Below are positions 6,354 to 25,799 of a DNA stretch of 38,999 nucleotides, one piece after another; positions within the stretch are counted from its first letter, which is position 1, and each line of letters starts with the position of its first letter. A program made the position numbers and the translations under genes. This DNA comes from a virus: the UHGV virus genome UHGV-1350822, one strand, 5' to 3'. Below the pieces are notes generated by a model that did no database searches, was not told the origin of the DNA, and saw nothing but the letters and a program-made list of their open reading frames with translations.

Positions 6354-7508
6354 TTACTTTTTAATGAATCTCCACTCAAAATTCTTAAAACAGATACAGG
6401 AAATAACGCTACACAGAGATGCAATAAAGGCTATCAAAATTGTGTAATTCACAGTAGACATGCTCGATAGGTTATAGAAATTATTTATTGTTCTCATTAC
6501 TATAGCCATGATAGGCAAATGCAGCAAATAAAGACTATAACTTGCCTCACCTAAATAAACTAATGATTTTATTTTAAATATTTTTGGTTTAGTTATAAGT
6601 ACCATTATAAATAGTAATGAAATGCATGCAAATCTGATTCGTCCATAGCTGTCTGCGGAAGAGCAGAAGATAACAAAAATAGCTATGAAAGAAATGAATG
6701 AGAATATCCAATATTTATCATCAATGTTAACATAAGATTTATTGAATATATATGCACCTAAGGCGCCAACTATAAAATATGGCCACAAAACAAATTCTGT
6801 CATAAAGTCTCTTGCCGCAAGTAACATTACTGCGGAAATGGCAAACATACCATATCTCTTGCTTGCGATGGCAATCGATAATAGAGGGAAAATTAAATAA
6901 AACCTCCATTCATACGGTAGAGTCCATATCACCGCATTTAATCCTGATGCGTTAAAAGAGCCAATGAAGATTTCTGTGCCCAAAAATCCAAACCCAAAAA
7001 AATTTAGGAAGCTTGAAAAATCAACAAAGTTAAGCCTTGCTGAACTGCCGGATAATATAATAGCTAAAATTGCCACCAAAAGCGCAGTAAGCATATATAG
7101 AGGAACGAGTCTTTTTATCCGAGCAACATAAAATTTATTCCAGTCAAATGTATTATTTCCTTTTATTAATTTATCAAAGAACAAAAATCCTGTAATGCAA
7201 AAGAAAATCTGTACACCGAAGCTACCCATATTCCCTGTGATGGAGTATTTTGTGAAGTCTATAAATATGGGCTGAACTCCATTGGTAATAATTGTATGAG
7301 CGCCGTGATTAATAAGAACGCTGAACGCAGCTATCCCACGCAATCCGTCTATAAAGAAATACCTGTTACTTGCAAAGTTGATGTGAGAAAAATAGTTATA
7401 TCGTGTCAATAGTGTAATACATAACACAACGGCTAAAAGAGACAAAAAATATAAATAAAGACTTTGCGCCTCAAAGATCATAATGCACACCATGAGATAA
7501 AATTTCAA
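6354..7508 (-). CDS. oac: Acyltransferase-3 family integral membrane protein, likely O-antigen acetyltransferase (lysogenic conversion)
   Basis: About 10 predicted TM helices; N-terminal R...H motif (RGIAAFSVLINH) and FFCITGFLFF motif typical of acyltransferase 3; very AT-rich; sits between tailspike and int as oac does in Sf6. ORF-track start is TTG at 7508; ATG at 7493 is more likely. Confidence 0.8.
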   Translation of the reverse strand: MKFYLMVCIMIFEAQSLYLYFLSLLAVVLCITLLTRYNYFSHINFASNRYFFIDGLRGIAAFSVLINHGAHTIITNGVQPIFIDFTKYSITGNMGSFGVQIFFCITGFLFFDKLIKGNNTFDWNKFYVARIKRLVPLYMLTALLVAILAIILSGSSARLNFVDFSSFLNFFGFGFLGTEIFIGSFNASGLNAVIWTLPYEWRFYLIFPLLSIAIASKRYGMFAISAVMLLAARDFMTEFVLWPYFIVGALGAYIFNKSYVNIDDKYWIFSFISFIAIFVIFCSSADSYGRIRFACISLLFIMVLITKPKIFKIKSLVYLGEASYSLYLLHLPIMAIVMRTINNFYNLSSMSTVNYTILIAFIASLCSVISCICFKNFEWRFIKK

Positions 7509-7726: not shown

Positions 7727-8884
7727 TCACTCCACCTTTTCATCAATCCAGTCAGCCCACCACTGCATCATTTCTCTGCGCTTATCTAGATACTGAGCAT
7801 GGTTGTAAATCCCGCGCACAGATCCGCCGTTGGCATGTGCAAGTTGCACTTCAATAGCGTCAGCAGGCCATTCGTGCTCGTTCATAATCGTGCTGAATTC
7901 ATGCCTGAATCCGTGACCGCTTTCCAGACCCTCATAGCCGATTTGTTTGATCACAAGCAATACCGCGTTCTCGCAGATTGGCTTTTTCTTATCGTTGCGC
8001 CCGGCAAAAACAAACTCTGATACTGGTTTAGTGATTGAGCTTAGCGTAGTGAGAAGTTCAACCACCTGGTCTGACATCGGGACAACATGAATTTTGCGTC
8101 CCTTCATCACACTGGCGTCGATGGTGATAATCCTGTTTTCAAAATCGACGTTCTTCCATTGCATGGAACGAAGCTCTTTCGTTCTTAGGGCTGTGTAGCG
8201 TAAAACTTTGGTCGCAATGAGCGATACGATACTTCCTGAAAATGTTGCAAGTGCTTTGTTGAATGCCGGGATCTGGTCGGCAGGTAAAAACGGGAAGTTC
8301 TTCTTGCGGTATCCCTTCATGGCGTCAGCAAGGTCAGGTGCCGGGTTATATTTAGCCCTACCAGTGACAATAGCGTAACGAAAAACCTCGCCGCATCTTC
8401 TGCGGGCTTTGTTGGCTCGCTCCATTGCACCGCGATCTTCAAATCTGCGGATTACTTCCAGCAGTTGCATCGGCTCAATATCCTGAATCTCAAGACCGCC
8501 GATGATGGGTAAAATGTCGTCATCAAACATTTTGGCAAGTTCAGTTGCATAGCCTACTGACCAGACTTGCTTCTTGTGCTCGTACCATTCCTTGTAAATC
8601 GCACTAAATGAATTGTTGCTAGACGAAGACTTTTTCGCCTTTACCGGATCGATGCCAACCGAGATGTCTTTCCTCGCAGTCCATGCCTTATCCCTTGCTT
8701 CCTGCAAAGTCATAAGCGGATATTTTCCGACAGTCAGGATTTTCTCCTTACCGTCAATCTTGTAGCGAAGCTGCCATACCTTTTTCCCTGATACAGGGAC
8801 ATAAAGGTACAGGCCATTACCATCGAGTAGGCGGTATGGTTTTTCTTTCGGCTTTGCTGCTTCAATCTGCTTAACGGTGAGCAT
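7727..8884 (-). CDS. int: Tyrosine integrase, P4/IntS-type (DUF4102 arm-binding N-domain plus catalytic domain)
   Basis: MLTVKQIEAAKPKEKPYRLLDGNGLYLYV N-domain; catalytic residues in HGFRHEF...LAH...Y; ORF track extends to GTG 8920 but ATG 8884 matches the usual IntS-type N-terminus. Confidence 0.9.
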   Translation of the reverse strand: MLTVKQIEAAKPKEKPYRLLDGNGLYLYVPVSGKKVWQLRYKIDGKEKILTVGKYPLMTLQEARDKAWTARKDISVGIDPVKAKKSSSSNNSFSAIYKEWYEHKKQVWSVGYATELAKMFDDDILPIIGGLEIQDIEPMQLLEVIRRFEDRGAMERANKARRRCGEVFRYAIVTGRAKYNPAPDLADAMKGYRKKNFPFLPADQIPAFNKALATFSGSIVSLIATKVLRYTALRTKELRSMQWKNVDFENRIITIDASVMKGRKIHVVPMSDQVVELLTTLSSITKPVSEFVFAGRNDKKKPICENAVLLVIKQIGYEGLESGHGFRHEFSTIMNEHEWPADAIEVQLAHANGGSVRGIYNHAQYLDKRREMMQWWADWIDEKVE

Positions 8885-9045
8885 GGGTAAAAATCCGGTG
8901 GGTAAAATTATTTTATCCACTTTTTACCCGTCATGGAGTGCGGCTGTCAACGATCTGACGCGAACCATGACGAACCGTGAATATACGTAAGGCTTGATAT
9001 TCAGGGGATTTTGCGGACTGGTACGGATGGGAGCGAACTGATAAA

Positions 9046-9084
9046 TGGTGTCCCCTGCAGACATCTACTTGACGAGGCAGGGGA
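9046..9084 (-). other. Candidate attP core: 15 nt identical to the 3' end of tRNA-Arg (argW) including CCA, inside an 8-bp inverted repeat
   Basis: 9046-9060 TGGTGTCCCCTGCAG is the reverse complement of CTGCAGGGGACACCA (argW 3' end as I recall it); inverted repeat TCCCCTGC(9051-58)/GCAGGGGA(9077-84); about 161 nt upstream of int ATG. Confidence 0.5.
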
Positions 9085-9133
9085 TTGATTTGAATGGTGT
9101 TTTTTAGATGTGAGAAATATTTTACCCGCTATT

Positions 9134-9334
9134 TTACCCATTGGCGCGGCTTAAGAGCTTATTTTTGAATTCACAATGGTCACGATATAACCATCTTGCT
9201 CGCCCGTGGATAACTTTGGCTTTTGGCAGGTCGCCGGACTTAATCCGGTCGTAGATGAAGGTTTTACCGAAGCCAGTATCAGCCATGATGAATTTCAAAT
9301 CAACCAGTGAATCAGGTTGTAGTTCGTGTTGCAT
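9134..9334 (-). CDS. xis: Excisionase / AlpA-family small DNA-binding protein (TorI-like)
   Basis: 66-aa protein with winged-helix AlpA/Xis character; immediately upstream of int and attP; GGAG RBS. Confidence 0.75.
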   Translation of the reverse strand: MQHELQPDSLVDLKFIMADTGFGKTFIYDRIKSGDLPKAKVIHGRARWLYRDHCEFKNKLLSRANG

Positions 9335-9365
9335 GAGTGCTATCTCCGAATAGGGAATCGAACCT

Positions 9366-9389
9366 GCAAATCAGGCAATAAAAAACCGC
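9366..9389 (-). terminator. Rho-independent terminator (leftward transcript) upstream of xis
   Basis: Stem CCGCC/GGCGG with loop on the minus strand, followed by a TTTTTTATT run. Confidence 0.6.
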
Positions 9390-9442
9390 CATCAGGCGGC
9401 TTGGTGTTCTTTCAGTTCTTCAATTCGAATGTTGGTTACGTC

Positions 9443-9754
9443 TTATTCGATGCGCACTCCTGGTATTTCTCCTTTTGATATTGCTAAGTCATAAATTTGC
9501 GCGGCACTATATCCATCCCGCATCCATGAATCTAAGGCGCGAACAGCCTCGCTACGCTTTTTATCTTCTCTCTCATTTTTGATATCAACGAGGACATCAA
9601 CGCAATTAAGGCAAATGTGGATTTTGTCCTTACATTCGATCATGGCGGCTTTACCATGATTTCCGCCACACAGTGAGCATAAATCTTCAGGGTCTGTCTG
9701 GTATTTCTGTAACGTTAGATGGTTGAATGTTGAACAGGCCATAATCATCTCCAT
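9443..9754 (-). CDS. Hypothetical protein with Cys-x2-C...C-x2-C zinc-ribbon-like motif
   Basis: 103-aa ORF in the leftward operon; CSLCGG...CLNC motif. Confidence 0.5.
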   Translation of the reverse strand: MEMIMACSTFNHLTLQKYQTDPEDLCSLCGGNHGKAAMIECKDKIHICLNCVDVLVDIKNEREDKKRSEAVRALDSWMRDGYSAAQIYDLAISKGEIPGVRIE

Positions 9755-9813
9755 AAAACAAAACTCGCCGTAGCGAGTTCAGATAAAAGAAATCCCCGCG
9801 AGTGCGAGGATTG

Positions 9814-17640: not shown

Positions 17641-17919
17641 ATGCAACTTACAAGTACTCGCAAGAAAGCGAATGCAATTACAAGCAACATCCTGAATCGA
17701 ATTGCTGTACGTGGTCAGCGAAAGGTGGCCGACGCATTAGGGATCAATGAATCGCAAATTTCGCGATGGAAAGACAGCTTTATCCCAAAGATGGCCATGC
17801 TTCTGGCTGTACTGGAGTGGGGTGTTGAAGACGAGGAGTTGGCGGAACTGGCTAAGAAAGTAGCCAGAATGCTGACAAAAGAAAAAGCCCCGAAGAACGG
17901 CGAATTCTTCGAGGCCTGA
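17641..17919 (+). CDS. cII: CII transcriptional activator
   Basis: SQISRWK...IPKMAMLLAVLEWGV matches the lambda CII core (SQISRWKRDWIPKFSMLLAVLEWGV). Confidence 0.9.
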   Translation: MQLTSTRKKANAITSNILNRIAVRGQRKVADALGINESQISRWKDSFIPKMAMLLAVLEWGVEDEELAELAKKVARMLTKEKAPKNGEFFEA

Positions 17920-25346: not shown

Positions 25347-25427
25347 TATATCTGTGCAACAGGTAAGAGCATTGAACCCGCAGACCTCGCGGAATTGGTG
25401 AAAGGTGCCGCGCAGTGCTCTTATCGT

Positions 25428-25557
25428 TGTGGTGAAGCTCAATGGCGAGCTAGCAGATAGGCGACAGTGAAAATACTAGTCATGTAGCTGACCGCCGCGC
25501 GTACTGCAATCGGCAGCGCACCGATGGAAGCCGGTTCGATTCCGGCCGCCACAACCC
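25428..25557 (+). other. tRNA-like element, possible tRNA relic (canonical T-arm and anticodon-like arm, acceptor-complementary 7-mers 126 nt apart)
   Basis: T-arm GCCGG-TTCGATT-CCGGC (25530-46); arm ATCGG-CAGCGCA-CCGAT (25509-25); 3' CGCCACA (25547-53) pairs with TGTGGTG (25428-34) next to a D-arm-like GCTC-AATGGC-GAGC; no clean cloverleaf and no encoded CCA. Confidence 0.3.
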
Positions 25558-25799
25558 AAACTGAGCCGTAGCCACTGGCTATCCTGAATTCATCAGTGAT
25601 AGTTACGCTGCTGCCTTCTACACATGATCTTCGTGAAAGCGGGTGGCAGGAGGTCGCGCTAACAACCTCCTGCCGTTTTGCCCGTGCATATCGGTCACGA
25701 ACAAATCTGATTACTAAACACAGTAGCCTGGATTTGTTCTATCAGTAATCGACCTTATTCCTAATTAAATAGAGCAAATCCCCTTATTGGGGGTAAGAC

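Follow-up and report, generated by a model that had tools for sequence, protein, structure and literature searches.

An argW-matching block upstream of the excisionase gene in a KplE1/HK620/Sf6-type phage integration module

The match to argW

A recombination module specific for the transfer RNA (tRNA) gene argW has been studied as KplE1 (CPS-53) in E. coli K-12, and is common to HK620, Sf6 and CUS-3 (PMC2951348, PMC3509656). These elements share the same 16-nt core, five sites for the excisionase TorI, GGGTAAAA arm sites and the gene order int-attP-xis, and the same features are found in UHGV virus genome UHGV-1350822, a stretch of 38,999 nucleotides that we refer to as a whole as the window. 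The region studied here is 97% identical to Shigella phage Sf6 and, from a terminator onward, also to coliphage HK620, and judged by its sequence it is an argW recombination module of the Sf6/HK620/KplE1 type. We describe a short block in this module, directly ahead of the xis (torI) gene, that matches argW itself. On balance, our comparisons lead us to favour the reading that the block derives from argW, is kept by selection and acts in cis in the control region of xis, most plausibly as a candidate site for TorI and/or the integrase, Int.

The block was noticed in a first-pass annotation of the sequence, which suggested a match to the T arm of argW. Formal alignment to argW (the reference being the copy from E. 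coli genome L006) confirmed this, with 16 of 16 positions identical between TTGCAGGTTCGATTCC and argW nt 46-61. The 16-mer is present exactly and only once in the window, at 9369..9354 on the - strand, and lies, as had been claimed, between a terminator (9402-9380) and the xis start (9334). Shuffled sequences contained a mean of 0.05 matches to it when up to two mismatches were allowed, and the expectation for an exact copy is ~2e-5 in 78 kb. The 16-mer comprises 2 nt of the variable loop, the 5′ T stem, the T loop and 2 nt of the 3′ T stem. Eleven of its nucleotides, GGTTCGATTCC, represent a generic T-loop motif, of which a second exact copy is located at 25533-25543, while the five nucleotides on the 5′ side of this motif, TTGCA, are specific to argW. 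The match is not limited in the window to the generic motif, and since TTGCA lies outside that motif, the assignment to argW stands for the window.

The attP core is co-oriented with the 16-mer and lies 294 nt downstream of it. Positions 9060..9046 of the core are identical to argW nt 61-75 (15/15), and exact identity extends beyond neither of the two matches. The 16-mer ends at the very nucleotide at which the core begins (argW nt 61). The two pieces thus correspond to adjoining parts of the argW 3′ region, as the first-pass annotation had it, but they amount to 30 nt rather than the 32 nt it gave, with one C (nt 61) shared between them. In Serratia and Pantoea, the identity with the tRNA runs 2 nt further into the 3′ T stem (CCTG). 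We consider it very probable that the 16-mer is derived from a tRNA. The possibility that the 16-mer is itself an attP core or identity segment was considered and rejected: the duplicated core is CTGCAGGGGACACCAT, and the 16-mer, at its distance of 294 nt, only abuts this core in tRNA coordinates.

Conservation and genomic context of the block

We collected xis leader loci from IMG/VR contigs, together with those of Sf6, HK620 and K-12 KplE1, and obtained 124 pattern matches, of which 122 have a TorI-type xis leader. (The other two are a junction of an element that we call E2, described below, and a chance match outside xis; locus L057, a candidate for a different xis upstream, was rejected as a chance 18-mer match that is not xis.) The exact 16-mer is found in 116 of the 122 loci, including K-12 KplE1, HK620 and Sf6, and each of the remaining six carries one singleton change within it. 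Variants of the spacer, by comparison, are common among these E. coli-type modules.

Diverged TorI homologues (62-86% identity) were taken from other genera. Every one of them is accompanied by the core TGCAGGG(G/A)AC or a one-base variant of it (TGCAGGGGGC in P. stewartii), mostly followed by (A/G)CCA, and since all of these modules carry that core, all target tRNA-Arg(CCU). A pattern search for leaders from outside E. coli in IMG/VR returned only genuine tRNA genes of large phages. Ten lineages have an alignable leader, namely the window, Enterobacter, Atlantibacter, Serratia, Citrobacter, Pantoea, Edwardsiella, P. stewartii, Hafnia and Cedecea, with TorI identities that range from 62 to 100%. 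The 9-mer GGTTCGATT is invariant in all ten (mean pairwise difference 0.000), and the 14-mer CAGGTTCGATTCCC that includes it has a mean pairwise difference of 0.087. The corresponding values are 0.36 for the P arm, 0.44 for third codon positions of xis, 0.62 for the adjacent 4-nt spacer and 0.65 for the 25 nt upstream of the block. From the share of columns that are invariant among third positions and in the P arm, the probability of nine consecutive invariant columns by chance is ~1e-8 to 1e-5. Outside the 14-mer, TTGC is not retained in the other lineages, and the stem reads CCAGG, ACAGG, ATAGG or GCCGG. The value of 0.087 for the 14-mer, set against 0.44 at xis third positions, therefore indicates selection, and it is likely on these figures that the block is under purifying selection.

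On the - strand, the module is arranged in the order gene-19-like open reading frame (ORF), terminator, 16-mer, Shine-Dalgarno sequence, xis, arm repeats, attP core, P′ arm, int and acetylase-like gene. Its features are as follows (HK620 and Sf6 annotations are those of their GenBank records):

9754..9443, - strand: gene-19-like ORF, ended by an intrinsic terminator
9402..9380, - strand: intrinsic terminator, AAGCCGCCTGATGGCGG followed by a T-run (terminator scan)
9378..9366, - strand: TTGCCTGATTTGC (TTGC-N5-TTGC), annotated in HK620 as the cII-binding site of the integration promoter (from the HK620 and Sf6 annotations, projected onto the window); the second TTGC forms the opening 4 nt of the 16-mer
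9369..9354, - strand: 16-mer TTGCAGGTTCGATTCC, argW nt 46-61 (exact match, alignment)
9366..9353, - strand: conserved 14-mer CAGGTTCGATTCCC (alignment and divergence statistics)
9365..9358, - strand: TorI-site-like AGGTTCGA, inside the conserved 14-mer region
9364..9356, - strand: invariant 9-mer GGTTCGATT (10-lineage alignment)
9352..9342, - strand: variable 5-nt spacer, then the xis Shine-Dalgarno sequence GGAGAT at 9347..9342 (lineage alignment)
9334..9134, - strand: xis (torI), ATG at 9334, encoding a recombination directionality factor of 66 aa (98-100% identity to TorI/excisionase entries in databases)
9139..9132 and 9127..9120, - strand: two Int arm-type repeats GGGTAAAA of the P arm, overlapping the xis 3′ end (HK620 attP repeat annotation)
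9060..9045, - strand: attP core CTGCAGGGGACACCAT, argW nt 61-75 plus T (core sequence as in PMC2951348)
9040..8950, - strand: P′ arm with five TorI sites, CAGTTCGC, CAGTCCGC, CGGTTCGT, TGGTTCGC and CAGATCGT (spacing and motifs from PMC2951348)
8950..8945, - strand: -35 element TTGACA of the promoter PintS
8929-8922: third GGGTAAAA arm-type repeat (sequence coordinates)
8884..7727, - strand: integrase of the IntS/P4-like type, with an Arm-DNA-binding domain
7508..6354, - strand: oac-like (O-antigen) acyltransferase gene, after the integrase gene

TorI is identical to HkaC of HK620 and gp18 of Sf6 (PMC3509656). The GGGTAAAA repeats of the P arm are kept in all lineages compared. We also observed an inverted repeat, TCCCCTGC (9084..9077) and GCAGGGGA (9059..9052) on the - strand, that brackets the left part of attP and is kept in all TorI-type modules examined, in the form of CAATCCCCTGC and TGCAGGGGAC.

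The suggestion that the 16-mer sits at a recombination (mosaic) boundary was borne out by homology breakpoints, which fall at ~9377-9389 in several phage groups. K-12 KplE1 keeps the 16-mer despite having a different upstream gene (yfdT) and terminator, and its homology to the window starts at ~9384. On the other side, 933W-type Stx phages share gene 19 and the terminator, with homology that ends at ~9377. The same terminator hairpin is followed, among IMG/VR contigs, by a TorI-type leader, a lambda-type xis or unrelated genes, and the boundary sequence (bsq) annotated as bsq2 in Sf6 starts at the 16-mer stretch. Given these breakpoints and the varied genes that follow the same terminator, the 16-mer is therefore the first (outermost) block of the integration module, and lies at a mosaic joint.

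Two further observations concern the wider distribution of this region. The hairpin AAGCCGCCTGATGGCGG (window 9380-9402; L005:842-880) is a recurrent mosaic joint of the early-left operon in many phages. Enterobacterial TorI-type modules also occur in metagenome-assembled genomes assigned to unrelated phyla (L209, Actinomycetes; L225, Parachlamydiaceae), where the phylum labels most likely reflect binning contamination.

Elsewhere in the window, at 25530-25546 (+ strand), there is a perfect T-arm hairpin, GCCGG TTCGATT CCGGC, in a stretch without an ORF of at least 80 aa (context 25380-25700). ARAGORN found no tRNA there, and Rfam gave only a weak match to the 3′ part of transfer-messenger RNA (tmRNA; E=0.02, 11 bits). 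In related phages, a tRNA-Thr adjoins the stretch homologous to this region. The hairpin is probably a decayed tRNA- or tmRNA-like remnant in the leader of the late operon.

Origin of the block and its use as a pseudo-attB

The first-pass annotation had proposed that a single argW 3′ end was split in two by xis. Comparison with relatives does not support this, as the core-proximal copy there keeps a T-loop remnant of its own. In Serratia, Citrobacter, Atlantibacter, Pantoea, Cedecea and Edwardsiella, the core is preceded by (A/T)TTCGATGT(A/T), then TGCAGGGGAC (TTCGATGT-N-TGCAGG), and in most of the diverged relatives (A/T)TTCGATGT(A/T) differs at two or three positions from TTCGATTCC of the tRNA and is correctly spaced. 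Such a remnant on the 5′ side of the core is seen across loci L208-L243 (e.g. L210:~2770-2790), and its changes concentrate at tRNA nt 59-61. What is left of it in the E. coli-type module is GTAGATGTC (window 9069-9061), a decay that accounts for the impression of a clean split. The upstream fragment and the core-proximal copy overlap in tRNA coordinates (nt 53-61), and by this alignment the upstream fragment is a second, overlapping partial copy of the tRNA, which reaches further in the 5′ direction, to nt 46.

Because the upstream copy has bases of the 5′ T stem and variable loop, unlike any attP copy, its most likely origin is the chromosomal B arm (attB or attL). The left junction of the fragment would be at the TTGC common to the backbone, and the right junction at nt 61/62. 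We propose that the 16-mer may be a fossilised B arm, the bacterial side of the argW attachment site. It would have been taken up in a lysogen through illegitimate or secondary-site recombination, at a time before the module had spread among Enterobacterales, and would then have become fixed at the outer, xis-proximal edge of the KplE1/HK620/Sf6-type module. Neither IMG/VR nor 5,426 E. coli genomes yielded an unsplit form, in which the terminator flank is joined to contiguous argW 46-75, and the 16-mer had no other right-hand partners in IMG/VR. We likewise found no deletion remnant (argW 5′ part, 16-mer and torI contiguous) of the kind that recombination between the two 16-mers of a lysogen would leave.

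Other elements that target argW use the block as a pseudo-attB. A lambdoid prophage in E. coli 2015C-4498 and 2013C-3342 is interrupted, precisely on the upstream side of torI, by the element E2 (~10.5 kb), which encodes a P4-like tyrosine integrase (30% identical to the Int of the window), a replication protein and a serine recombinase. At the left junction TTGCAGGTTCGATTCCATATTCGGA is joined to CACCACCACGCC, and at the right junction AATTTATTTTTCGATTCCTGCAGGGGA is joined to GATAGCACTCATG (torI), as expected from an attP carrying TTCGATTCCTGCAGGGGACACCA and as is typical when recombination is site-specific. The empty-site allele (...CCATATTCGGAGATAGC...) is present in IMG/VR. The locus thus presents an inserted element, reconstructed junctions and an empty allele, which is what we looked for in a secondary attachment site. 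Crossover occurred via the TCGATTCC identity, at GGA (9347-9345), between 9345 and 9344 (GGA/GAT), and overlaps the xis Shine-Dalgarno sequence. At genuine argW, E2 is found in ~75 other genomes, and the copy in NCTC9064 is flanked by a 24-nt repeat, TTCGATTCCTGCAGGGGACACCAT, that corresponds to the argW 3′ end. Since the attP of E2 recombined with the relic, the relic is still sufficiently argW-like for an integrase. A KplE1-type attL at the pseudo-site, with the same crossover as that of E2, was searched for and not found; the top matches were ordinary two-piece attP arrangements.

The size of E2 varies from 7.7 to 10.5 kb (L127:11448-21990 in 2015C-4498; L245:16031-23709 in NCTC9064). It also encodes a helix-turn-helix protein and sometimes ParA, and is often found in tandem with KplE1-type prophages at argW.

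A candidate control element, its alternatives and known systems

Purifying selection on CAGGTTCGATTCCC, 20-33 nt upstream of the xis ATG, would hold it together with the xis leader and Shine-Dalgarno sequence, and would therefore make it a working cis element of the xis 5′ control region. It could act as a DNA site to which the recombination proteins of the module itself bind. Each TorI site is an 8-mer around GTTCG, GATCG or GTCCG, that is, the family G(T/A)(T/C)CG (PMC2951348), and the consensus that we reconstructed from the five sites is YRGWYCGY. The AGGTTCGA within the block shares GGTTCG with the centre of sites I3 (CGGTTCGT) and I4 (TGGTTCGC) and GTTCG with I1, and Cedecea and Mixta retain arrays of GTTCG in their P′ arms. 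The block contains this core of I3 and I4 alongside TCGATTCC, the left half-site used by an argW-specific P4-like integrase. We tentatively regard it as a candidate DNA site for TorI and/or Int that could modulate xis expression, such that binding at the block would feed back on xis. The promoter PtorI has been termed "non-characterized" (PMC2951348).

The first-pass annotation had also considered an Int arm-type site at this position. This did not hold up: the KplE1 Int arm-type sites carry a TAAA motif (PMC2951348), the arm repeats here are GGGTAAAA with TAAA, and none lies within 9353-9369. We note separately that TAGTTCGT at 9319-9326 (+ strand), inverted in xis codons 3-5 and 39 bp from AGGTTCGA, satisfies the TorI 8-mer consensus strictly; it is confined to E. 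coli-type modules and is one of 29 such matches across the window, so that it may be due to chance. Rho-dependent termination of transcripts that come from upstream reportedly keeps torI silent in K-12. This is compatible with a control element where the block lies, but identifies none.

Several points count against a selected, argW-derived control element read by TorI or Int. The AGGTTCGA matches the TorI consensus at 6 of 8 positions, with both ends off, and a second TorI-like motif, which lies 12 bp downstream, varies and does not fall in the 10-bp phase of I3-I5. All mapped TorI sites are in the P′ arm (PMC2951348). The path of capture has left no intermediate that we could find, and the two related genomes with the E2 insertion probably record one event. 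The lineages compared are phylogenetically non-independent and were recognised partly by their alignable leader, which introduces some ascertainment bias. Finally, neither the block nor the GGAGAT(A/G)AAACC leader is found in relatives in Klebsiella, Cronobacter, Mixta, Rahnella, Dryocola and Tatumella, since xis there adjoins a different gene or terminator. As some relatives do not have it, the block is therefore useful rather than essential.

That the block is a neutral scar without function, its conservation being due to recent horizontal spread, to sampling or to a role as a "linker" in module exchange, is unlikely in our view, although it is the alternative that fares best. Fragments of tRNAs at prophage ends are commonplace, the block lies exactly at a mosaic boundary, and it is dispensable in several lineages. 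However, a neutral scar would not be expected to show nine invariant columns beside a spacer with 0.62 and synonymous sites with 0.44 mean pairwise difference in the same sequences, given the chance of ~1e-8 to 1e-5 for such a run, and 14 nt is too short for efficient homologous exchange.

Improbable, too, is that the 16-mer is the -35/spacer part of a CII-activated pI promoter, with CII binding to TTGCCTGATTTGC, and that its likeness to a tRNA is incidental. Transcription from such a promoter would start so near the xis ATG that the Shine-Dalgarno sequence is excluded, and would thus give Int without Xis. The HK620 record annotates a phage-integration promoter and cII site (9378..9366), and the Sf6 record a possible pI (9377..9350). 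A lambda-type module in BL21, which follows the same terminator, has a true pI box, TTGCGTGTAATTGC, in the corresponding position. Promoter prediction found no sigma-70 consensus promoter in the xis leader, as expected for an activator-dependent promoter. The geometry, with 13 nt from the second TTGC to TATTCG, resembles that of lambda pRE. However, the spacing of the half-sites is N5 (9378-9366), versus N6 at the phage's own pRE-like site inside cII (17674-17687), and TTGC-N5-TTGC occurs in the window at the rate expected by chance (4 found, 3.6 expected). Furthermore, the first half-site is TTAC in 28 of the 124 loci, including K-12 KplE1, which has no CII, and other genera keep neither of the TTGC half-sites nor a -10 element, whereas GGTTCGATT, which CII would not read, is invariant. 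The mapped promoter that int has of its own, PintS (PMC2951348), also counts against a pI promoter here.

The pRE-like site itself is a canonical TTGC-N6-TTGC (TTGCTTGTAATTGC) on the - strand at 17674-17687, inside cII (17641-17919, + strand) and at the position of lambda pRE. The TTGC-N6-TTGC pattern is enriched in the window, with 10 found compared to 3.5 expected.

We also think it quite improbable that the block acts at the RNA level, in the leader of the xis messenger RNA, where it would pair with the Shine-Dalgarno sequence or form a T-arm-like hairpin or tRNA mimic, and so throttle the translation of Xis. RNAalifold and single-sequence folds do give hairpins between the block and the Shine-Dalgarno sequence in several lineages (AUUCCC/GGAGAU, GGUU/AACC), a C-to-U variant in Citrobacter and Enterobacter improves the pairing, and Edwardsiella can form ACAGG/CCUGU. 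Yet the consensus fold energy is only -0.92 kcal/mol, fold z-scores range from -0.15 to -1.76, single-sequence folds are no better than those of shuffled sequences, and the predicted structures vary between lineages. The sole pair that RNAalifold scored as changed on both sides gives no real support, as its 5′ partner, the block, is almost invariant. Occlusion of the Shine-Dalgarno sequence in the RNA is accordingly something we doubt. The regulatory mimic that the first-pass annotation had put forward fares no better if taken as a mimic of a tRNA: the window reads GCAGG TTCGATT CCCTA, in which CCTGC is missing and 2 nt of the 3′ half of the T stem remain, ARAGORN found 0 tRNA genes in the window, and Rfam scans at E<=10 over 8900-9800 and 9200-9500 gave no tRNA match and no family above threshold. 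Weak Rfam matches over 9284-9439 (STnc130, STnc420, isrK) were rejected as terminator-driven and far below gathering scores.

Lastly, a TorI/Int operator that converged on a T-loop-like sequence, with the argW match a coincidence, can hardly be the explanation: although beyond E. coli-type modules only the generic T-arm motif (C)AGGTTCGATTCC(C) is in common and GTTCG is a TorI motif, an identity of 11-14 nt is implausible from a motif of 5-6 nt, the identity includes five argW-specific nucleotides in the window and extends to CCTG in two lineages, the block is co-oriented with the core and ends at its first nucleotide, and it is recognised by an argW-specific integrase.

A more far-reaching version of the control-element reading is that the phage deliberately keeps a copy of the attB B arm as an operator before xis, which would be a tRNA-derived autoregulatory excision switch and landing pad in one. 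This we consider decidedly doubtful. If true, TorI and/or Int, having evolved to read T-loop-like DNA (GTTCG), would gauge their own levels at xis, and satellite-like argW elements would exploit the block as a landing pad; such an insertion would cut xis off from the early-left transcript and lock the prophage in place.

The finding is a modest one, which refines a well-studied module and adds no new system. The window adds no new biology of its own: its module is known, and has the sequence seen in Sf6, HK620 and KplE1. Nevertheless, control of the excisionase decides whether prophages of the KplE1/HK620/Sf6 type stay or leave, and a 14-nt block before torI that is conserved across genera gives footprinting and reporter mutagenesis a concrete and inexpensive target. 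It also appears that a phage can carry, in its virion genome, the bacterial half of its own attachment site in a form recognisable to other argW-specific integrases, which provides a route by which elements can become nested in prophages and integration modules reshuffled. A tRNA-derived block upstream of torI is absent from the site descriptions in PMC2951348 and PMC3509656 and from the annotations of HK620, Sf6 and Kapi1, though a prior mention elsewhere is possible. With that proviso, three points appear to be undescribed: that the pI/bsq2 stretch has a piece of argW at its start, that the T-loop core in it is kept from genus to genus, and that the stretch has the capacity of a secondary attachment site.

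Compared to known systems, the closest are KplE1, HK620 and Sf6, in all three of which the 16-mer is present; the window carries their module almost base for base. The TorI sites I1-I5 of attL form a phased array, whereas the block is a single candidate site, on the other side of the core and 300 bp away. Lambda pI resembles it in genome place, after the last early-left terminator and at the 5′ edge of xis, and records call this spot in the window pI; in sequence, however, lambda pI is TTGC-N6-TTGC, while the window has N5, its half-sites and -10 element are unconserved, and the conserved part is the T-loop block. Like the boundary sequences of lambdoid phages, the block marks a spot where different upstream genes meet the same module, although the bsq label of the Sf6 record describes the joint sequence and is silent on a tRNA origin or on selection on the 14-mer. 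Finally, secondary attachment sites and displaced tRNA 3′ fragments share with it the property of being partial tRNA copies usable by an integrase. The block differs from the usual 3′ identity segment in being the B-arm (5′) side of the site, and from the usual secondary sites in that it lies inside a phage genome, travels in the virion and is conserved across genera.

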